From: Planctomycetota bacterium
Lineage (GTDB): Bacteria; Planctomycetota; SZUA-567; H5-PLA8
Length of the DNA stretch: 10,274 nucleotides
NCBI GenBank assembly: GCA_045863855.1
Contig: BTVV01000176.1
Span: 1 to 10,274, forward strand
Reading direction: 5' to 3'
The notes beneath the pieces are model-generated. The model saw nothing but the letters and a program-made list of their open reading frames with translations, did no database searches and was not told the DNA's origin. The position numbers were made by a program, and so were the translations under genes. This document shows positions 1 through 10,274 of this stretch, piece after piece. Positions within the stretch are counted from its first letter, which is position 1. Each line of letters starts with the position of its first letter.

Positions 1-46
1 GGATCATGGCGGCCTAGATAGGGGGGTTCAAGAGGCGCGTGCGCGG

Positions 47-688
47 ATGGAGTCCCGGGCCATGGGGGTCAAGTTGCAGCAGGGAGTAGTCTTAGATCTT
101 GTCCGCGGACTGGAGCCATACTTTAAAAATCAGAGCAATAAACAACTTTGGGGATGGTGGCGCGCTGGGTTGAACGTCGCCGCATTAGAGCTGCTTAGTA
201 AAGACAAGGGATCCCAAAACACCAACAGGGGCGACGCCGACATCCAGCGTGGAATTCACGATTCGCTCGAAGCACTGTTGGTCTCGCTTGGCTTAGCGGG
301 TATGCCGACGCCGGATCAGAATAAAGTCAAAAAATTGATTGCCGAGGAGTTGAATGGCTGGATCAATCAATGGATTGGTGACCATCATCCGTTGCCCGGC
401 GATCCAGACCTCATACTCATAAAGGCACAGCATGCCGGCGATGCGTTTCCGGACGAAGCGCTTTTACGCAAACTGGGCTGCAAACCTGCGGGCATTGAAT
501 TCTTGCGTTTGCTTTACGACCGTCGCCCTGAGCCGGTCAGTTATGATGCAGCGAGTGAGCATTTTAAAGTCTCTCCAAACGCATTTGCCCAACGAATCAG
601 AGACATCCCAAAACCAGTTAAGGATATTCTGTTGATGGATAAGGGTCCCAATAAACCGAAGGCGTGGCGTCCCCTGCCGACCGATTAG
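47..688 (+). CDS. Hypothetical protein, probable transcriptional regulator with C-terminal (winged) helix-turn-helix; may be 5'-truncated by the window
   Basis: 213-aa ORF. The C-terminus EFLRLLYDRRPEPVSYDAASEHFKVSPNAFAQRIRDI has a wHTH-like helix pattern. The frame has no stop from position 2 to the ATG at 47, so the true start may lie upstream. Visibly more AT-rich than downstream genes. Confidence 0.6.
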   Translation: MESRAMGVKLQQGVVLDLVRGLEPYFKNQSNKQLWGWWRAGLNVAALELLSKDKGSQNTNRGDADIQRGIHDSLEALLVSLGLAGMPTPDQNKVKKLIAEELNGWINQWIGDHHPLPGDPDLILIKAQHAGDAFPDEALLRKLGCKPAGIEFLRLLYDRRPEPVSYDAASEHFKVSPNAFAQRIRDIPKPVKDILLMDKGPNKPKAWRPLPTD

Positions 689-784: not shown

Positions 785-1021
785 ATGGTGTTGCCCATTG
801 ACGTCATACGTGACCGCATGGGGCGCGTAAGCTACCGCTGGGGCGATGAGTTGCACGCGGTCGGGTTGCCTCCTCATGTTCAAGATGCGGCTGCGCAGCT
901 TGGTGTCCCCGCCAAAACGCTCCGGAGCCGACTTCAGCGCGGCGATCGTGGCGAGCGGTTGACGCGCGCGCTCCAGCGAAGACCGCACCACACCCAACGC
1001 AAAAAACGCAATCGAAAATAG
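785..1021 (+). CDS. Small HTH DNA-binding protein (excisionase/phage regulator-like)
   Basis: 78 aa with SD GGGAG at 773-777. VQDAAAQLGVPAKTLRSRLQRG is a typical small phage-type HTH. Basic C-terminal tail. Sits directly upstream of a primase gene, as in satellites and integrative elements. Confidence 0.7.
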   Translation: MVLPIDVIRDRMGRVSYRWGDELHAVGLPPHVQDAAAQLGVPAKTLRSRLQRGDRGERLTRALQRRPHHTQRKKRNRK

Positions 1022-1029
1022 ACAAATAA

Positions 1030-1063
1030 ACCGAACGCCGCGGGGGCAACCGCGGCGTTCGGT
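1030..1063 (-). terminator. Strong hairpin, possible intrinsic terminator in the minus direction or attenuator
   Basis: Perfect 14-bp stem ACCGAACGCCGCGG / CCGCGGCGTTCGGT with loop GGGCAA. The A-rich AAATAAA just upstream (1024-1030) gives a U-tract on the minus strand only. Confidence 0.6.
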
Positions 1064-1106
1064 CGCGCGTGAGCGCGAAGCCCCTGATTGCAGCAGGAGC
1101 AGAATC

Positions 1107-3830
1107 ATGATATCCGAAGATCACGAGCAAGGAAAGTCCGAGGCCGGGCGCGCCGAAGATCTTTCGTTGCCGAAAGGGTTTCTCAAGGCGCGCGGTAGAC
1201 GTTTGTCGCTCGCGGACGAGAAGGCGCTGCTCCAGACCCGTGGATTTACACGCGAAACCCTCCAGCGCCTGGGGCTTTTCTCGGTCGAGGAGGCCGACCT
1301 AGGGCTACTCGGCGTTTCGCTTCCATATAGCGAACTGCCCTCCACCATCGCCATTCCGTACCATGACACTGCACAGGGCGATTACGTGCTGGCCCGCCTC
1401 CACAAGGTCAGCGGCGAGGGATTGCGCTACCCTCCGTACACAACGCCGATGCCTAGCCCCGCTCTTTGCGACATCGTGATTGCGGAGTCGGAGCTGAAGG
1501 CTGCGATGGCTTTTCAGCTCGGAGACCAAGGTGTGGGTCTCCAAGGCGCCCAGAGCTTCGTCAATCGGGTGCCGGAACTGGCCAACACCATTCGCGGGAT
1601 GGGGCTGGATGGGCGGCGCGTATTTATGGTCCCGGATCATGAGTATTTGATCCAAGACGGTCAGCGCGAAGTCGCCGAGGCCTTAATTGCGATGGTGCGT
1701 GTCGCGCACGCTCTGAAGATGGACTTGGGCGTAGACGTTCGCGTCATCCTCTTGCCTGAACGATTCCTGGTGGACGGCCATACTTCCGGTGGGCATCCGA
1801 AAGTGAAGGCCGACTTGGACGCGGCCGTGGCTGCGGGACTCACCGAGGCCGAATGGAGAGACATTAAGGATAGGGCTTTCGCGGTCCCGGACCTCCCGTT
1901 CCCGACGTGGGCGATTGCCAAGGCGATGGTTTTGGCAGCGCCTGACGATTTCCTGGCCGGGGAGCACCTCAAGGCGCGCCTGCAGGGCATGGTGATCGAT
2001 GATGCGATGGAAGTGTTGAAGGCGGTGGTGTCTGCATTGCGTTCCCGGTGTTTTGATGCTGCGAGCGAGCGCACCGACGAAATTCTTCTGGGCGTGTACC
2101 TTCACACCACCGTGGAGTGGGCCAACAGAAACGAACTCAAGCACGTCACGATCAAGGGACTGCGCGACCTACTCAAGCGACTCGGGGAGGCGCTCCCGCC
2201 TGAGGCCGCGGGAGGATTGCTCGCGCATTGCATGGTTGAAAAGGAGCATGGGGTTGTCCTCGTCAAGAGCAGCGGCCCTGCTGAAGTAGTCGCGCCTTTC
2301 CTCCTGCGTTCGTGCCGGTACGGACACGTTCAGTATGTCAGCGGCCCGCGCGTTCGCAGTTACCGAGTGAACCTTGAACTGCGACACAACGGAAAGTGTC
2401 AGAAACGCGAAGTGGACATCACTGGGAATTTGTTCGAAGCCGAGCGGTACACCGCCGCCGATCCAGATCTTACGATCGCCGATACGAGGAGATTTCGCAT
2501 GTACGCTGGCGCCAAACTTCAGCAGGCTGGATTCCAGACCGCCGATCCGACGTTGGATCGCCCGTTATTCGTGGGCCTGCTGCGCTACGAGGACCGCTTG
2601 CTCGCGCTCACCGACACGTCGTTTCCGCGCCGGGACCAGGACTGTTGGTACGACTCGCCCGCCTTCCCCAAGGACGGCGATGCCGCGCGCGCCTTTGCGG
2701 AGATTGCAGGCATCACGCGAGACGCCGACATTGCGTTCGTGCATGCACTCGGCGCGCCACTGAAGGCTGTGCTGGGCTTTTACCCCCTCGCCAGCTGGAT
2801 CGGGCACCGCTACAGCGGCAAAACGACCGTAGCCGAGGCGACCGAAGCGCGGACGTGCCTAGCGCGCTTCTCGGCCAACGATCAGTTTTCAAGCCGTTAC
2901 CGGATTCTTAGGGCCGTGGGCAACCACAATCTGGCCGTCATGGCCGACGAGATGCATCGCCTGGATGAGCGCTGGAAAGGTGCGGCGTTGGCGGCATTCA
3001 ACACCTGCTACAACGGCGCCATCTGTACCCACGGTGTTGAGGGGCACTACTACACCGCAGGATGCGTGATCATGCTGGGCCAGGATCGCGCGTTTTCCGA
3101 TGAAGCGCTTTTGGCCAAACAGATCGTGATCCACTTTGACCAGCAGAACATTTCCGAGGCGGGAGTCCACGTGGCCAAGCAGAACCGGACGGCGTTTCCG
3201 CTGGTCGCATGGGTGGAGTTTCTGGCGAAAGAGGCGGCCGGGGCGCAGGAACTGCTTGCCGAACAGAAGTCGGTGCTCGAAGGAAAGCTGCAAGAGCGCG
3301 GGGTTCGATTTGTTTCGACGGACCGAACCTTGGTCAACTACGCCGCTGTGCTGGTGGCCGCTCAATACCTCAACAAGTTTGGAGTGCAGTTGGAGATCAC
3401 GGATCGGGTGGCAGACCTTTGCGCACTGCACCTAGCCGGCAAGTTGCACAAGCAGGACGAGCACGCCACCGCGCGCTCGGCTGCGCAACAGTTCTTGGTT
3501 GACTTATTGGAGGCGCTCGGCAACACCCGGGATCGCCAAGCGATGGAGGGCGACTTTGACATTGTGGCGGGTGAGGGGGTTTGGATTCGACTTGCCGCCA
3601 CCTTGAGAGTGCTCCGCCGGGGTCGGCCCCAGTCCTACGATGGGATGCAAGAGGCGAGAATGGGCGAGGCCCTAGCGAAGGAGTTCCGCCCTAAAGGCCT
3701 CACGAAGGCCAAGCACCAATTCGCGGCGGGGCGATTCGATGGCTTGCTCATCCCGGAGTCCCTGTGCGTGGAACTGGGAGTGGAGTTCAATGCCGGTTCC
3801 GCGCCCCAACGAGAGGATGGGCTCGTGTAA
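1107..3830 (+). CDS. Primase-helicase fusion: N-terminal Toprim-like (DUF3854-type) primase and C-terminal P-loop NTPase/helicase (DUF927/Cch/SF3-like) with putative terminal wHTH
   Basis: 907 aa with SD AGGAG at 1095-1099. Primase-like segments: RGFTRETLQRLGL, IVIAESELKA (Toprim glutamate motif, 1473-1502), GVGLQG, VFMVPDHE (D at 1635) and DLDAAV. Walker A GHRYSGKT at 2802-2825, Walker B VMADE at 2937-2951, then CVIMLGQD, DEALLAK and DRTLVNY. Confidence 0.8.
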   Translation: MISEDHEQGKSEAGRAEDLSLPKGFLKARGRRLSLADEKALLQTRGFTRETLQRLGLFSVEEADLGLLGVSLPYSELPSTIAIPYHDTAQGDYVLARLHKVSGEGLRYPPYTTPMPSPALCDIVIAESELKAAMAFQLGDQGVGLQGAQSFVNRVPELANTIRGMGLDGRRVFMVPDHEYLIQDGQREVAEALIAMVRVAHALKMDLGVDVRVILLPERFLVDGHTSGGHPKVKADLDAAVAAGLTEAEWRDIKDRAFAVPDLPFPTWAIAKAMVLAAPDDFLAGEHLKARLQGMVIDDAMEVLKAVVSALRSRCFDAASERTDEILLGVYLHTTVEWANRNELKHVTIKGLRDLLKRLGEALPPEAAGGLLAHCMVEKEHGVVLVKSSGPAEVVAPFLLRSCRYGHVQYVSGPRVRSYRVNLELRHNGKCQKREVDITGNLFEAERYTAADPDLTIADTRRFRMYAGAKLQQAGFQTADPTLDRPLFVGLLRYEDRLLALTDTSFPRRDQDCWYDSPAFPKDGDAARAFAEIAGITRDADIAFVHALGAPLKAVLGFYPLASWIGHRYSGKTTVAEATEARTCLARFSANDQFSSRYRILRAVGNHNLAVMADEMHRLDERWKGAALAAFNTCYNGAICTHGVEGHYYTAGCVIMLGQDRAFSDEALLAKQIVIHFDQQNISEAGVHVAKQNRTAFPLVAWVEFLAKEAAGAQELLAEQKSVLEGKLQERGVRFVSTDRTLVNYAAVLVAAQYLNKFGVQLEITDRVADLCALHLAGKLHKQDEHATARSAAQQFLVDLLEALGNTRDRQAMEGDFDIVAGEGVWIRLAATLRVLRRGRPQSYDGMQEARMGEALAKEFRPKGLTKAKHQFAAGRFDGLLIPESLCVELGVEFNAGSAPQREDGLV

Positions 3831-3831
3831 C

Positions 3832-4079
3832 TGTCGGAGAGGTGTCGGGGTACTCCGACACTGTAAGCTATTACTCTCAAATTAGTTACGTAGTGACGGG
3901 GTGGTCGTAGTGAAAATGCCCCCTCGCCATATACGCGGCAACTGAAGAGGGACGGGGAGAGGAAGAAGATGCATATAAAAGGAGAGCCTAGCAGTTTTGC
4001 CCCGACAGCCCCGACACTACGCAACCCGCACGTAGATCTGGGGTTGCAGGTACGGAGTACCCCGACACCCCCCCGACAC
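3832..4079. repeat. Nested inverted repeats with CCGACA iterons; putative replication origin
   Basis: Outer IR 3832-3857 vs 4053-4078 matches 24/26. Inner IR 3889-3901 vs 4009-4021 matches 12/13. CCGACA occurs on + at 3855, 4002, 4011, 4062 and 4073, and as TGTCGG at 3832 and 3843. Internal palindrome at 3842-3861. Starts right after the primase-helicase stop codon. Confidence 0.75.
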
Positions 4080-6635
4080 GAGACCTTAAGCGACGCCGGA
4101 GTATCCGGGTTGGTTCGCCGGCTGACGCGCGCACCCCAAGCGGTCCTGTTGGACACCGAGACGCTTGGTCTCGGCGGCATCCCATTCCTGATTCAGTTGG
4201 AAGACCCGGACACGGGAACGCCGCTGGTCATTCGCGCCCGCGACCACACCCCCGCGCGGATCTTGGAGTTGCTTGGGGCGCTTGCCTTGCCCCACCTGAC
4301 CTTGGTTGGACACAACCTGATCTTCGACCTGGCGAAGCTCAGCCACTTGGCCACCGTCTGCAAGGCGCTCGTGGAAGCGGGGCAGGGTTGGTCCGAAGAG
4401 GCGGTCTGGAACGCTGAGCGGATATGGCGACCTGGACAGTGTTCCTTCGAAGAAAGGCTTAAGCAGCTTTGGCTGCTCTGGCCCCGTCAGTGCGTGGACA
4501 CACTGGTTGCCGCGCACCGCCTGCCTCCATTCGCGAACGAACTGCAAAGCAAGTCGACGATCGCATTCACCCAAATCCCCGCCGCAGCCGTTCCGCGCTT
4601 GTTCGAGAAGTTTAAGGAAAACCTAAACCAGGATCAAGAAGGCTTGGAAGCCCGCTGGCGCCTGGGGGATCGCCTGTCGTGGGCCTGGAACGACAAACCC
4701 CATAGGCACGAAAAAGCCCGCCGCGAAGCCGCGATCAAAAGTCACGACTACCGCGTGCTGGCAGACGTTCGATTCACGCTGGACTATCCGGGCGCCTACA
4801 GTCTGAAAACCCTTGCACCCTTGTTGGGTTACGCGGGCCTTGCCGAGCATCAGGATTTCGAGGGAGTGTTTGGCCGCGCGGAGGAAAGCTGCCCGGCCTG
4901 GACGGAGCGGGGTGGGCCACAGGCCCGTGAAGTCGGCCACGCCGACGCTTGGGCCAAGTCACTGGACCTGGAGCACGACGAATCGTTCCTGCGTTACGCC
5001 GCCGCGGATATCGCGATGTTGCGCGTGGTGTACGACCACTACCGCCAGCAGACCGGCTTCGATGCGCTGGGGCACGACATGGCCCTCATACCCTGGGCTG
5101 CCGCCGTGCGCCTGACGGGCATCCACGTGGATGAGGCCGAGCGGGACCGCGCCGCGAAGGCCTACGAGGCTGCCTGCAACGAAGGCATTGCCCATTGCCA
5201 CGCGCTGGGGTTGGCAAACATAAACAGCAGCGATCAAGTGATCGAGTTTGTGAATAAGCATGTGATTGAGCGCGCCAATGCGATCATGCCAGTGGAAGAA
5301 GATGACTTAGAGGAGGTCGAAAACAGCCGCAGGGAGGACACCCTAGAGCCCCTCCTGAAACGCTTGGAAGCCCAGAAGGGCGCCGACGACGCGTGCCGCA
5401 ACTTGCGGATGCTGATCCACGCTCGCGTTTTCGACAAGAAGCTTCAGTTCGTGCGGAACATACACGGCGACTCGGTCTTCCCTATGTTCCACATCACGGG
5501 AACCGAGACCGACCGCCTGACCTGCACGAACCCGAACAGCCAGCAGATGCCGTCCCCGGATCGCGAGACCGACCTGGAACGCGCGCAGGATCTGCATTTC
5601 CGTGCGATGTTCACTTCCCCAAACGGATGGAAAATGCGCACCGGCGACTTCGACCAGTTAGAACTGCGCCTCAAATCGGGCGTAACCCGGGACCCCTTTA
5701 CCCAGGCGATTTACGCGCGCGAGACCAACGAAGATCCGGCCGACGAGCACAGCGAAACAGCGCTCAAGATTTTTAACGCGGAGCTTCACGCCGTAGTTCC
5801 GGGCGCCACCGATGCGGAGTTATTGTGCCTGCTCAAGTCCAAGGATAAACGCGTGAAAGCGTTCCGGGGAAAGGCCAAGCCAGTGGGCTTCGGCATCGCC
5901 TACGGCGCATCCGAGTTTGGCATCAGCCGTAGCGCCGGCTGCAGCGTGGAGGAAGCGCGGCGGATTCTGGATCAGTATTGGCGCGTCTGTCCCACCACCA
6001 AGGCGGCCATCCACGCCACGCATGAAATGTTCGCCATTTTGAGAGGTGCGGGCGGGTGGGGAATCCAAGTGGGAAATCCGAAGGCGCTGGGAATCACCAA
6101 CCCCGTCGGAGTTTCGAGATATTTTCGGATCGCGCTGCGAATGATTCGGATCGCGGGGCTCATGGCCAATGCGGCTCGGGATGTCAACGGGCGCAGTTAC
6201 CTGGAGCGGGAGATTGTGGGTCCTGGGGCTGGATTGGCACAAGTCCAGCGGGGTACCGACAGGATGACCGGCGGAGCACGTACCGTGACGGCCGTGGGCG
6301 CGCTCAGGAGCGCGCTGCGTGGGGGTGCGTTTGCCCTACAGGGAAAAGTTCAACGCCGCTCCTTCAATTTCTTGATTCAGTCGTTCGGTTCGTACCTGAC
6401 AAAACGCCTGCAAGGGGAAGTGTACGCGCTGATTCAACCAGGATTGCGGCGCGCCGAGGACCTTCCGGTGCTGCCGGGGCTTCAAGTCCACGACGAGATA
6501 CACCAGTACACGCGGGGTGATCAGGACGCAAGTATCCACGAGATCGTAGAGCGATTCAGAGCCGAGGCCAGCCGGCTGGTAGGTTGCCCGATCCGATTCA
6601 AGTTCGAGACCGTACGTTCGTGGGCCGAAAAGTAG
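3969..6635 (+). CDS. DNA polymerase family A with 3'-5' exonuclease (phage/mobile-element type; no 5'-3' exonuclease). True start may be TTG at 4110
   Basis: ExoI LLDTET (D at 4152), ExoII GHNLIFD (4308-4328), ExoIII YAAAD (4995-5009). Polymerase motifs: TETDRL...NPNSQQMP (from 5502), motif A DFDQLELR (5646-5669), motif B RGKAKPVGFGIAYG (5865-5906), NFLIQS (from 6366), motif C VHDE (6486-6497). Alternative start TTG at 4110 has SD GGAG at 4098-4101. Confidence 0.93.
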   Translation: MHIKGEPSSFAPTAPTLRNPHVDLGLQVRSTPTPPRHETLSDAGVSGLVRRLTRAPQAVLLDTETLGLGGIPFLIQLEDPDTGTPLVIRARDHTPARILELLGALALPHLTLVGHNLIFDLAKLSHLATVCKALVEAGQGWSEEAVWNAERIWRPGQCSFEERLKQLWLLWPRQCVDTLVAAHRLPPFANELQSKSTIAFTQIPAAAVPRLFEKFKENLNQDQEGLEARWRLGDRLSWAWNDKPHRHEKARREAAIKSHDYRVLADVRFTLDYPGAYSLKTLAPLLGYAGLAEHQDFEGVFGRAEESCPAWTERGGPQAREVGHADAWAKSLDLEHDESFLRYAAADIAMLRVVYDHYRQQTGFDALGHDMALIPWAAAVRLTGIHVDEAERDRAAKAYEAACNEGIAHCHALGLANINSSDQVIEFVNKHVIERANAIMPVEEDDLEEVENSRREDTLEPLLKRLEAQKGADDACRNLRMLIHARVFDKKLQFVRNIHGDSVFPMFHITGTETDRLTCTNPNSQQMPSPDRETDLERAQDLHFRAMFTSPNGWKMRTGDFDQLELRLKSGVTRDPFTQAIYARETNEDPADEHSETALKIFNAELHAVVPGATDAELLCLLKSKDKRVKAFRGKAKPVGFGIAYGASEFGISRSAGCSVEEARRILDQYWRVCPTTKAAIHATHEMFAILRGAGGWGIQVGNPKALGITNPVGVSRYFRIALRMIRIAGLMANAARDVNGRSYLEREIVGPGAGLAQVQRGTDRMTGGARTVTAVGALRSALRGGAFALQGKVQRRSFNFLIQSFGSYLTKRLQGEVYALIQPGLRRAEDLPVLPGLQVHDEIHQYTRGDQDASIHEIVERFRAEASRLVGCPIRFKFETVRSWAEK

Positions 6636-6646
6636 GAGTGATCCGA

Positions 6647-6877
6647 ATGCCACACCGTACCTCTAAGCGCGATTACCTAGAAGAGCCCAACCGAGATCCC
6701 CTTGCGATCCTCACCCCCGAAGCGCGTGCCGTCTACGTGGTGATGCCCGCTTGCTACAGGCGCTTCAAGATCATGGAACTGTTGGCTTACGAAGCCGGCC
6801 TCAAGAATCCCCGGCGTAACCAGTCCTTCGCCGATCTCTTCGAGCTCGTGAAGCGCCGCTGCGAGCACCTGCCGTGA
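6647..6877 (+). CDS. Small hypothetical protein (76 aa)
   Basis: ATG at 6647 is preceded by SD AGGAG (6634-6638), which overlaps the polymerase stop codon. It is the 3' part of listed ORF 6584..6877. No recognisable motif. Confidence 0.6.
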   Translation: MPHRTSKRDYLEEPNRDPLAILTPEARAVYVVMPACYRRFKIMELLAYEAGLKNPRRNQSFADLFELVKRRCEHLP

Positions 6878-7181
6878 TGGGCAGCCGGAGTTTGCTACGG
6901 ATGCGAAGTCCTGAGCGCCTTCGCGCGCTGTCTAAATTCGGGTCGATTCCGCGTTACAATTTAATGTGCACGCCTCGCCCTATTTTGGGCTGATCCACGA
7001 AGCATTCCACCTGCCGGTTTCCGGCCAGCGCTCTGCGACGCCCCGCCTCGCTCGCCGGTCGCTAGTGCTGCCGGCCCCGCCACGCCCATTCCCCGGCCTT
7101 TCCCCGACGCGCACTTCGCTAAATCCCACCGACCACGCCGCAGCGCTGCCCGGCCACCGGCCTTTTTCGGAGGCCATTTCC

Positions 7182-7874
7182 ATGTCACATGCAACTGCCT
7201 TAGCATGCCCGCCCCTCGAATCCGCCCCCAATTTCGAGGACTTGCTGCCCGAACTTTCCTCCCGCCTCGCGCGCATGACAAAAAAGCTACCTAAACGCAT
7301 CCGCGATGCGGCATTCGACGACGCCTTAGGCGCCGCATGGCTGAATTTTTCCAGCGCGAGCCGACGTGGCAACCGATTGAGTGCGAAGGCTTTGGGCTGG
7401 GCGGCCTGTAAGCACCTCAAGAATCGTTCGACGATCACGGCGCTGCACTATCCGTCTCGGCGTCCGGAGATTCCCGTGGCGCTGGACGAGGTTGCTGCCG
7501 ATCCCACTTCCAAACTCGCGCAATCGCTCACCACGGACGAGCATCAGAGCCCGTTCGAACGCGCACGCGTACGGTTCGACTGGCAGGCTTTTGCTCGAAC
7601 CCAGCCACCGCGCGTGCGCGTTATCCTGGCAGGCCTCGCGGAAGGCTACTCCAAGAGCGAGATCGCTCTGGGGCTTGGCATTTCGCGGGGGCGCTTGAGC
7701 CAATTACTCACCGAACTGGCCCATGAAATTCTGGCGTACGGCCACGCCGAGCCCCCGCCGCATCGACAAGGCGTTACATCCGTTACACACGAAACAATTT
7801 TGACCAATGATTCAGTGGAAATACCGGTCCCTTCCCGCCTATCGTCCAAGCCGTACCGGAACGCCACACGATGA
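7182..7874 (+). CDS. ECF-like sigma factor / sigma-70 region 4 HTH protein
   Basis: ATG at 7182 with SD GGAGG (7169-7173), inside listed ORF 6966..7874. Region-2-like segment RDAAFDDALGAAWLNF. Region-4-like segment FARTQPPRVRVILAGLAEGYSKSEIALGLGISRGRLSQLL (HTH about 7644-7709). Confidence 0.65.
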   Translation: MSHATALACPPLESAPNFEDLLPELSSRLARMTKKLPKRIRDAAFDDALGAAWLNFSSASRRGNRLSAKALGWAACKHLKNRSTITALHYPSRRPEIPVALDEVAADPTSKLAQSLTTDEHQSPFERARVRFDWQAFARTQPPRVRVILAGLAEGYSKSEIALGLGISRGRLSQLLTELAHEILAYGHAEPPPHRQGVTSVTHETILTNDSVEIPVPSRLSSKPYRNATR

Positions 7875-8128
7875 CGCTGCCCTCTAAACCCGTCGTGATC
7901 CGGCTCCCGGCGGAGGCCAACAAGAAGTTCGAAGCCCTCTGCCGGGAGTTCTCCGGACTGCCCAAATCCCAGGTCATGCGCCTGCTGATCGAGGCGCTCT
8001 TGAACGAGCCGTTGAGCGAACAAGTACAGGTCGTGACGAAGCAAATCCGCAAGCCCGGCACGAAGCCGGGCGTGACGAAGAAGCCTTCGGAGCGTTTCGA
8101 GGCGCTCAACACGAACCGGCGCCATTAG
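7871..8128 (+). CDS. Ribbon-helix-helix (CopG/Arc-like) DNA-binding protein
   Basis: 85 aa. KPVVIRLP strand followed by two helices (AEANKKFEALCREF, PKSQVMRLLIEALL). ATGA overlap with the upstream stop codon. Confidence 0.6.
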   Translation: MTLPSKPVVIRLPAEANKKFEALCREFSGLPKSQVMRLLIEALLNEPLSEQVQVVTKQIRKPGTKPGVTKKPSERFEALNTNRRH

Positions 8129-8136
8129 GGGGCAAT

Positions 8137-8709
8137 GTGGCCAAGCCGAAGAAGCAAAAGCAGAAGCATAAGAATCGCTTCAAGGCGCACGCGCGCTCGC
8201 GCATGCCGTTTCCTTCGTTAGCGCCCCCAGGGCACCAAGCCCTGTCGCCGGCGCCTGCTCCGGTGAAGTATGCTCCGGACAGTTCCGCGCACGAGCTGAC
8301 GGCAGAGAAGTTGGCGCGCGCCCAAGAACTCGTCCGCGAGCAGGCCGCGCACGTGAAGCCCGAGGAGATCGCGGGCATCGCGGACGGTGCGAAAGGCAAG
8401 GCCCAAGGCCTGGGTGCGTCGGGCTGGGACTTCATTGTCCTGCTCGGCAAGCAGGCCGGGCTGCTCTCCGAAATGCTCTACGACTGGGTAACGGGCAAGT
8501 ATCGGGCGCCCTGGCGCACCATCGCCGCGGCGGCTGCGGTGCTGGCGTATTTCATAAACCCGATCGACGTGATCCCCGACTTTATCCCCGTGGCTGGCTT
8601 TTTGGACGATGGGGGTGTCGTGGGCTTGACCTTCGGGCTGATCCGCGAAGACCTGCTGGAGTATTGCAAGTTCCGCGGCCTGGACCCCAAGGCATACGGC
8701 CTCGAATAG
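8137..8709 (+). CDS. DUF1232 / YkvA family protein
   Basis: Signature IAAAAAVLAYFINPIDVIPDFIPVAGFLDD preceded by LYDWVTGKYRAPWRT. GTG start with a G-rich SD at 8127-8132. Confidence 0.88.
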   Translation: MAKPKKQKQKHKNRFKAHARSRMPFPSLAPPGHQALSPAPAPVKYAPDSSAHELTAEKLARAQELVREQAAHVKPEEIAGIADGAKGKAQGLGASGWDFIVLLGKQAGLLSEMLYDWVTGKYRAPWRTIAAAAAVLAYFINPIDVIPDFIPVAGFLDDGGVVGLTFGLIREDLLEYCKFRGLDPKAYGLE

Positions 8710-8975
8710 CAGCGTGGCCGACGAGGCTGTATCCGGGACCACCCAGGAACCCCCATTACCCGCCTGGAACTTCATCCCTCCCTTCTTGGCCTGCCCGCTG
8801 AATTCCCCAAGGCCTCACGAGGCTGTGCCTGTTACCTCCGGCGCGGCCTGGCCTTATATGTTCCAGAAGCGCCAATTCGGAGATGGCACATAGAGTCATT
8901 TTCAAGCATGGGAGGGGCTATTTTTTGAAGTTCGCGGACGTTACAATTCGGACCGATCGACGTGGGGGGTGCTGC

Positions 8976-9653
8976 ATGGACGACAGCGATGTTCCCGAGG
9001 GCTTTGCGGATTTCGTGGCGGAGCGCGACGACGCCCTCAAGCCGCCGCGCCGCCCTTGCCCCAGCCAAATGCCCACGCACGAATGGCTCAAGGCGCTCGC
9101 GCGCGGCGGCCAGGCCGGAGCGCTCGTCGATGCTTTGTCGAGTAGATGGATGTCCTGCGTCGAGACTGCGAGCGAGAAAAAGCGCCTGCTAAACGAGGTC
9201 ATCAAGGCCAACTCCGACCGCGGCTTACCGGTTCTGATCGACGCCGTGTTCCGGGCGATGATCGAGTACGACGCGCAGCTCCTGCTCACGCGCCAGTTGC
9301 TGATCGCCGAGCAGATGGCTCAATACCACGGGCAGGAAGACGTAACCATCCGGCCGTCGCCTGCGGTGATCGAGGAATTGGGCAAACTTTTGCGCATGGA
9401 AATGCGGCTGGTCGATCTCTGTGAGCGGTACGCCCGAACTATGCACGTGCTGAAACTCGCCGGTTTTAAGCCACTGCTTCAGCCGCAGAATCCGGTGTCC
9501 TCCGCGCCGTACAGACCGCCCGTGCCTGAAACCCGCGCCCCCCAGTCCCCTCAGCCAACGACGACCTGTGCCCCGGAGATGTCAAATGCCTGTGTATCGA
9601 GACACGATCGGCCCGCCCGACCCGTTTCAGCCCCTGTCTGGACGCCAGCTTAA
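8976..9653 (+). CDS. Hypothetical helical protein
   Basis: Listed ORF 8883..9653; a likelier start is ATG 8976 after GGGGGG (8964-8969). Amphipathic helical core and a Pro-rich tail that overlaps the next gene. Confidence 0.6.
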   Translation: MDDSDVPEGFADFVAERDDALKPPRRPCPSQMPTHEWLKALARGGQAGALVDALSSRWMSCVETASEKKRLLNEVIKANSDRGLPVLIDAVFRAMIEYDAQLLLTRQLLIAEQMAQYHGQEDVTIRPSPAVIEELGKLLRMEMRLVDLCERYARTMHVLKLAGFKPLLQPQNPVSSAPYRPPVPETRAPQSPQPTTTCAPEMSNACVSRHDRPARPVSAPVWTPA

Positions 9654-10107
9654 GGAACTTCTCATCGATTTGCGTAGCATTTTGGAGCAAAATGGGATCG
9701 TCCAGAGGCGTGGCGACCATTTTAGGCTCCGGTACAGAGAGCTCGATCCTGAATCTGGTTTCAGAGTTCATCGTTCGATTTGGATCGGCCGAGATCCCTA
9801 CGAGGCCGGTGCGGTTGCCGCCTTATTACGGCGCTGGAAGGACGAACGCAAAGCGCGTTTGGCTCTCGCGGAGCAGCGTCGCGTCGCGGAGGCCAAGAAC
9901 AAACGCCGCCAGGCTTTAGCACGCGCCAGAGAGCGTCTAATCCTGGGCTTAATGAGCGGCGGCGGACGCGACCATATTCGGGAAGTGATCCGCGAGTTCG
10001 ATGCCGCCGCCGCTAAAGGGACATGGGCTGCCCTGGAGTTTGTCAACGATTTCGCGCGCCGGTCGCCGCCCCAAGCGGGTCGGAAAACAGCGATGTGTTT
10101 GTGGTAG
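9586..10107 (+). CDS. Hypothetical basic protein, possibly nucleic-acid binding
   Basis: ATG at 9586 with SD GGAG (9575-9578), inside listed ORF 9568..10107. The segment FRLRYRELDPESGFRVHRSIWIG is followed by a long Arg/Ala-rich helix. Confidence 0.6.
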   Translation: MPVYRDTIGPPDPFQPLSGRQLKELLIDLRSILEQNGIVQRRGDHFRLRYRELDPESGFRVHRSIWIGRDPYEAGAVAALLRRWKDERKARLALAEQRRVAEAKNKRRQALARARERLILGLMSGGGRDHIREVIREFDAAAAKGTWAALEFVNDFARRSPPQAGRKTAMCLW

Positions 10108-10274
10108 ATGCTACCGGGGCACGCATGTGAGTCGCTCCGGCAGGATTTCTGGAAAAGTGCGCGCTCTATTAAAGAGTGTACGTGGCGCGCAGGTTCGACC
10201 GTCCGTGAGCCTCGTTCTGGGGCCTGAATTTTCGTAGCCTAACGTACTCCCTAAAACGGATTCGGATTTAGGTC

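Follow-up and report, generated by a model that had tools for sequence, protein, structure and literature searches.

A Toprim primase-helicase, a putative iteron origin and a family A DNA polymerase probably form the replication module of a tRNA-integrating island in Planctomycetota

Several mobile elements carry part of their own replication machinery. The origin (ori) of Staphylococcus aureus pathogenicity islands (SaPIs) lies immediately behind rep and has opposed iterons on the two sides of an AT-rich centre (PMC9371898). The CcPol-MP and TV-Pol polymerases are primases, or have been proposed to be, and work with an OB-fold partner; in most of them part of the exonuclease domain is lost (PMC10061031, PMC2579912). 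TV-Pol is a minimal polymerase domain that has neither a fused nor a linked nuclease domain (PMC2579912). Integrative elements bearing PolA together with AAA+ helicases are thus already in print in these two papers. In addition, Pas55 of Actinoplanes phage phiAsp2 fuses a superfamily 3 (SF3) helicase, DnaG and PolA in one polypeptide (PMC4889955), and module 6 of the marine satellites called VEIME carries a DNA polymerase gene (PMC9618062). Here we analyzed a 10,274-nucleotide stretch of DNA (the window), which is the entire contig C176 of a Planctomycetota assembly of 6.93 Mb and 287 contigs, with a GC content of 60.7% against 63.8% for the assembly. A preliminary description had placed a small helix-turn-helix (HTH) gene, a primase-helicase, a symmetric repeat region and a PolA at positions 785–6877, and all four open reading frames (ORFs) of this segment were found at their described positions on the plus strand (Table 1). 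This replication module is real, conserved and rare. We consider it probable, at roughly 0.6, that 785–6877 serves to replicate a mobile, tRNA-integrating island of one Planctomycetota family, and that it follows the Pri-Rep-ori plan of SaPIs and adds its own elongating polymerase. The estimate covers excision by an integrase, binding and melting of iterons by Rep, priming by the Toprim domain, and elongation and proofreading by PolA, where the enzymatic steps are read from fold and motif conservation.

The locus shared with SaPIs and other phage-inducible chromosomal islands (PICIs) the helicase fold, a primase fused or adjacent to it, an origin right after rep, opposed iterons with an AT-richer centre and, in relatives of the window, an integrase and a small HTH gene upstream. 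Unlike those islands, it had its own proofreading PolA after the origin and a primase of the DnaG-type Toprim kind, and here no packaging-interference gene was found and no helper is known. It resembled the Cch/CcPol-MP/PolA-SSB systems of the staphylococcal cassette chromosome mec (SCCmec) and TV-Pol elements in being integrative and in combining a family A polymerase with an AAA+ helicase and a site-specific recombinase. In contrast to CcPol-MP and TV-Pol, it had intact exonuclease motifs (exo I, II and III), a separate Toprim primase domain and a tyrosine-type recombinase; moreover, no ORF for an OB-fold protein that binds single-stranded DNA (SSB) accompanied the polymerase, and positions 3830–3969 held only iterons, as did the same interval in related loci L015 and L019. 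Pas55 likewise unites a DnaG primase, an AAA+ helicase and PolA in one replicon, but as a single phage polypeptide. VEIME are also satellites with a DNA polymerase gene. Pipolins and casposons use family B polymerases, whereas the polymerase here belongs to family A. The element is outside the CcPol/TV-Pol, CHEAP and pipolin families. In the open full-text literature, where subscription journals are thinly covered, we found no integrative element combining a Toprim-DUF927 helicase, an iteron origin and an exonuclease-intact PolA. Nevertheless, the earlier proposal of a poorly described class was overstated in view of the PolA-bearing elements in print, and its pairing of PolA with superfamily 4 (SF4) helicases was too strict, since the phage protein Pas55 fuses PolA to an SF3 helicase and DnaG.

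Structural comparison supported a DnaG-type catalytic core (residues ~17–360) fused to a DUF927/Cch-like AAA+ helicase (residues ~374–907) in the predicted primase-helicase. In an AlphaFold model built from a 10-row alignment (mean predicted local distance difference test score, pLDDT, 68), the Toprim half (residues 17–360) matched DnaG (5guj) with Z 12.4 and a root-mean-square deviation (rmsd) of 8.6 over 259 aligned residues, and the helicase half (residues 374–907) matched SaPIbov1 Rep (8tch; Z 8.9, rmsd 16.6, 345 aligned) and SCCmec Cch (5dgk; Z 8.5, rmsd 17.3, 361 aligned). Foldseek ranked Cch first (E 1.7e-4) and also found DnaG (3.4e-4). This model replaced an earlier one, built from three sequences (pLDDT 48), for which Foldseek found nothing at E 0.001. 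The fold thus bore out the Toprim primase/P-loop helicase fusion claimed previously, although the protein matched no Pfam or NCBIfam family and a sequence search of the PDB gave nothing meaningful. The only family in the sequence libraries was phrog_5629 (E 4e-13), and an atlas search pointed to DUF3854/Toprim plus DUF927. The closest annotated proteins were primases of P2-like Burkholderia/Ralstonia phages (86 records, 23–27% identity), such as RsoM1USA gp51, which have a homologous helicase half; hhalign against a Ralstonia phage member gave 99.3% over 325 columns in that half. The P2-like phages are tailed prophages with no PolA among 16 annotated neighbours, and one of their primases carries the annotation CHC2 zinc finger, a domain missing here. 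The Toprim acidic residues E127, D177/E179 and D236/D238, the Walker A lysine K572 and the Walker B glutamate E615 were invariant in all nine full-length or near-full-length rows, and the ratio of nonsynonymous to synonymous substitutions (dN/dS) was 0.06–0.28 in 5 of 10 computable pairs. The profile matched 4 of 17 genomes of the family, the window's own included, and in phylum-wide samples the primase-helicase and PolA were each found in 1 of 401 genomes, the window's own. A helicase subgroup (P0156, P0157, P0159 and L019 2092–4797) carried alanine in Walker A and was otherwise conserved.

The symmetric repeat region also proved real. Positions 3832–4078 consisted of two nested inverted-repeat pairs, 3832–3866/4044–4078 (83%) and 3885–3919/3991–4025 (74%), and held seven exact CCGACA/TGTCGG sites, with the sites at 3832, 3843 and 3894 (degenerate) on one strand and those at 3855, 4002, 4011, 4062 and 4073 on the other. 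Nowhere else in the assembly were five or more CCGACA sites found within 260 nucleotides. The same hexamer and geometry occurred in all three relatives that retain the region (L015, L019 and L014). In these and in the window, outer pairs were 11 bp apart and inner pairs 8–9 bp, with conserved offsets of 0, 11, 23–24 and 62–64 on the left and 170–192 and 230–257 on the right; the letters between the iterons diverged while the offsets persisted. This layout matches the SaPI ori plan, and the region is a putative replication origin. In its longest version the PolA frame covers the right half of the array with its first ~37 codons, and therefore the PolA start may lie downstream, at TTG 4044 or 4110. 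In relatives, a non-coding stretch immediately upstream of the primase gene was also conserved (L015 3593–3680; G014 C164 2019–2105; G013 C51 13546–13595 and 12638–12710), and at the equivalent position the window had a perfect hairpin.

The polymerase ORF matched PF00476 (E 6e-28), indicating family A, and scored 70 bits against a curated cut-off of 720 for bacterial Pol I, from which it also differed in having no N-terminal 5'-3' exonuclease. The complete proofreading PolA of the preliminary description was thus confirmed in its proofreading and polymerase motifs, whereas the enzyme was Klenow-like rather than complete. The exonuclease motifs were exo I D62/E64, exo II N116/D120 and exo III Y343/D347, all intact in the window, L015, L019 and P0004; the polymerase motifs were A (D560), B (R633/K637/F641/Y645) and C (H841-D842-E843). 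Phenylalanine at motif B position B3 (F641) was invariant in alignment A6, and CHEAP (PolA cluster 15) differs by a leucine there (PMC10201439). Homologues at E 1e-30 or better numbered 10 among 1.84 billion representatives, and dN/dS was 0.07–0.14 in 7 of 10 computable pairs, most of them near saturation, with 0.10 for the cleanest pair. The element PolAs formed one group (support 99 in a 69-row FastTree tree and 98 in a 24-row IQ-TREE quick search), which was sister to a clade of phage PolAs from IMG/VR (support 100 and 99, respectively); both trees were computed without bootstrapping and are not truly rooted. Host Pol I, reference phages and the PolA of a second island branched elsewhere, and the window's PolA stood apart from host Pol I, T7, CP-51, crAss, P23-45, Eden and SABI in FastTree and from six of these in IQ-TREE. 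PMC10201439 has 19 PolA clusters, most of which had no labelled reference in our trees, and CHEAP, also without a reference there, was set apart by its motif. The host keeps a separate full-length Pol I (a 962-aa frame on C31).

The sister clade comprised at least 264 IMG/VR stretches, of which 80 were kept, on contigs of up to 147 kb, and the viral status of these records rests on IMG/VR. The kept loci (L050–L129) come from many uncultured phages with a distinct PolA clade, some with ParB-like neighbours. Unlike the element, these phages showed no such primase-helicase: no match lay within 10 kb of PolA in 88 viral loci, nor in any of five whole records. Virion genes were unconfirmed in five records of the clade (PF03237 in none; phrog_2, presumably the large terminase, in one), and none of five matched DnaB_C. 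PolA may have passed from phage to element. As a tentative proposal, which we hold clearly less probable than the reading of the module itself, an undescribed tRNA-integrating Planctomycetota family captured a PolA of uncharacterised large phages onto a SaPI-like Toprim-DUF927 initiator and origin, giving a two-protein replisome (the primase-helicase without zinc finger, and PolA) independent of host Pol III, which would possibly let the element replicate as a satellite during infection by those same phages. A second, shorter family A polymerase (582–596 aa; L008 1493–3280 on C83 of G000, and L146 6205–7950 in G002) was observed in integrase-bearing islands at tRNA-Leu and tRNA-Val; the trees showed no relation between it and the window's PolA, and no match to the primase-helicase was found in these islands.

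Four independent related loci with genomic context were available: L015, G014 (L019), G016 (L014) and G013. L016, L018 and L019 were 100% identical where they overlapped and were counted once, and L017, which is frameshifted and contains an inverted duplicate, was left out of the synteny counts. The primase, origin and PolA were adjacent in three of the four (L015, G014 and G016), so the synteny held. L015 ran in the order excisionase, integrase, partial tRNA (GUG), HTH gene, primase, origin and PolA. Insertions into this tRNA core are frequent in the family, and integrases of this type point toward their tRNA; the tRNA junction of L015 could therefore be either an attP or a tandem boundary, and the integrase may belong to a neighbouring element. 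G014 showed host genes, a 3' fragment of tRNA-Gly(TCC), integrase, HTH gene, primase, origin, PolA and a ParB-like gene. An intact tRNA-Gly lay on another contig, 540 bp from its end, beside an arm-like repeat that also adjoined the integrase; the pair fits attL/attR, on two contigs that are not joined. In G016, the primase, origin and PolA start were on a 1.4-kb contig, with at least two PolA copies present. A tyrosine integrase was upstream in all three relatives with DNA there (L015, G014 and G013), beside a tRNA fragment in two, which agrees with the integrative nature proposed earlier. The integrases of L015 and G014 showed no significant similarity, suggesting that the module moves with different integrases. 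The position of the window's small HTH gene was taken in relatives by an HTH_17 or DUF1580 gene; the window's ORF was present as described, with HTH matches below cut-off, and it matched the G013 locus by tblastn (E 8e-5). As a separate observation, 26 tRNA calls lay within ~4.5 kb on contig C1 of G000 (23667–28178).

From these data, a replication cycle can be proposed. The integrase and HTH protein would excise the element, and the C-terminal domain of a Rep hexamer would bind the opposed CCGACA pairs and melt the central spacer. Two helicases would then be loaded for bidirectional replication, the fused Toprim domain would prime, and the phage-related PolA would extend and proofread, with the host supplying primer removal, SSB and ligation. 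In this way the element probably depends on the host for replication far less than do the phage satellites that it otherwise resembles, and we infer that it is self-synthesising in that sense. The island would probably spread by helper-phage packaging; genes redirecting packaging (terS, capsid-size or Rpp-type) were not detected in the window or related loci, where no element is closed.

Several observations weigh against this reading. The G013 locus had an integrase and HTH gene followed by a primase truncated at residue 734 and fused to a sulfatase-modifying domain, and it had no PolA; this copy is probably decayed. The A+T content of the origin centre was at most 62% in the window and 72–85% in relatives. 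Neither an SSB nor a processivity factor was in view in the window, which also showed no integrase or att site over the whole contig, and no joint between its ends was found in any of four sequencing runs. In PolA the TGR motif was TDR. In the primase-helicase, the Toprim domain had DxE where DxD is expected, the Walker A glycine was alanine in 4 of 9 rows, and the ATPase core of the model had pLDDT below 50, so that the helicase fold match is moderate. Furthermore, the N-terminal zinc-binding domain was absent, with the DnaG match starting at residue 17 and no conserved cysteine before C375. Such a domain is normally required by DnaG-type primases. As a side observation, a frame at L020 8672–12640 carried primase-helicase residues 1–734 together with FGE-sulfatase/laminin-G and had a source annotation as a SUMF1-family enzyme only.

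The most probable alternative is a SaPI-like island elongated by host Pol III in which PolA is an accessory for initial primer extension at the origin, repair or, given the missing zinc finger, aid in priming. A SaPI-type Rep and ori are a known sufficient design (PMC9371898), PolAs of SCCmec elements serve as primases (PMC10061031), and the shorter PolA of the second island in the same genome occurs without this primase. We nevertheless regard an accessory role as unlikely: PolA was 3' of the origin in all three intact relatives with its 5' end overlapping or abutting the iterons, all three exonuclease motifs were kept, and the interval between helicase and PolA had no ORF for the SSB partner of CcPol-type primases.

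A prophage replication region, with structural genes either deleted or situated beyond the contig, would account for the similarity to primase-helicases of P2-like phages, for the grouping of PolA with phage polymerases, and for related contigs that were all short (1.4–16 kb), with the G014 element not closed. However, the earlier statement that no virion genes were in view held, as none of the 10 window ORFs matched a virion PHROG, both element ends lying outside the window. Among 21 further proteins of the related loci there was also no virion gene, and one excisionase matched the terS family through its HTH only. No primase-helicase relative was detected in IMG/VR viral contigs in two scans, nor in a scan with P0017, and the genes 3' of PolA varied by locus (ParB-like, SF2 helicase or sigma module). 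No morphogenesis module was thus found, PolA was linked to the primase-helicase, and we judge a prophage origin quite improbable. A free plasmid whose replicon was binned into this genome would suit the solitary contig, the ParB-like genes 3' of PolA in two relatives and the junction in L015, where a partial tRNA separates the integrase from HTH-primase, if this is read as the attP of a circle, but it is very improbable given that the G014 and G013 loci adjoin host-type genes, that 72,556 plasmid records yielded one weak primase match, and that no end-to-end joint was seen.

An assembly chimera was ruled out. Contigs X3 (spanning 814–5919) and X2 (3095–8883), from two other studies, bridged the primase-ori-PolA junction with zero differing letters; one of the four runs compared is possibly the source and was not counted as independent. 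Contigs from runs X1 and X3 reached 355 and 494 nucleotides further left than the window. Read depth over the module was flat at ~7–9 in three runs, which, having no host-gene control, gives no copy number. Two listed joints with sides only 20 letters long were ignored. No contig-end overlaps extended the window, and among contig ends bearing an integrase none could be linked to the window's left end.

If two proteins and a 250-bp origin suffice, the preferred reading of 785–6877 as an island's replication module would place it among the smallest bacterial replisomes with proofreading, and it could be rebuilt in vitro. Two questions could then be asked of it: can a DnaG core that lacks a zinc finger prime, and can a Cch-type AAA+ helicase be coupled to PolA? 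The module also draws attention to a PolA lineage common to many large uncultured phages and not placed among labelled subfamilies, and it is a candidate replicon for Planctomycetota genetics.

Table 1. Features of the window, with positions, strand and basis of assignment
Feature	Position	Strand	Basis or remark
ORF lacking its 5' end and without known family, upstream of the module	2–688	+	Frame continues past the contig edge
Small HTH protein, excisionase/regulator position, 78 aa	785–1021	+	HTH_8 and Sigma70_r4_2 matches below cut-off
Perfect 14-bp hairpin between HTH and primase genes (inverted repeat I18)	1030–1063		Terminator-like on minus strand
Primase-helicase, 907 aa	1107–3830	+	Fold matches, phrog_5629, conserved catalytic residues
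Putative replication origin, opposed CCGACA iterons around central spacer	3832–4078		Repeat geometry, kept in relatives
Klenow-like family A DNA polymerase, 888 aa, start codon uncertain	3969–6635	+	PF00476 and motifs
Small ORF after PolA	6584–6877	+	No family; ATG 6647 would give 76 aa
Separate island module: sigma-like, ribbon-helix-helix (RHH), DUF1232, two conserved ORFs, pre-resolvase DNA	6871–10274	+	
Sigma70-r4-like gene	6966–7874	+	
RHH gene	7871–8128	+	
DUF1232 gene	8137–8709	+	
Two conserved ORFs without known family	8883–9653, 9568–10107	+	

Among the remaining features of the window, the truncated first ORF had no match in Pfam, PHROG or NCBIfam, and the small ORF after PolA had no match in the related loci. 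Neither tRNA genes nor Rfam families were found in the window, a sigma-70 promoter scan of it gave no match, and no RNA data set containing the module was found.

The sigma-like/RHH/DUF1232 flank was non-structural, as described earlier, and turned out to be a separate module that occurs without this replisome in other islands. Paralogues were present in the same genome on C141, C167, C117, C220, C197, C228 and C251, and in G002 the match started at 6871 with unrelated DNA upstream. The module was repeated in the window's own genome and G002, one copy being in an island at tRNA-Val whose PolA is a different one, and was absent from the primase-PolA loci of relatives. Because it recurs without this replisome, the window is a composite island. 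The ORF pair 8883–10107 after the sigma70-r4-like gene had paralogues on C141, C167, C83, C117 and in G002 and was lineage-specific; Pfam, PHROGs and NCBIfam assigned the pair to no family, nor did the atlas, where 8883–9653 gave no usable match. The right end of the window matched DNA preceding a serine resolvase on C141, and C179 begins with a half-resolvase of this kind, after which comes a XerC/D-like pair; it is possible that C179 continues the window. A recurrent cassette was also observed, consisting of a serine resolvase, an 830–920-aa P-loop ORF without a Pfam family and two tandem XerC/D-like recombinases, at L001 4032–9974, L037 4312–9888, L038 525–5017 (without the resolvase) and L145 4465–10404.

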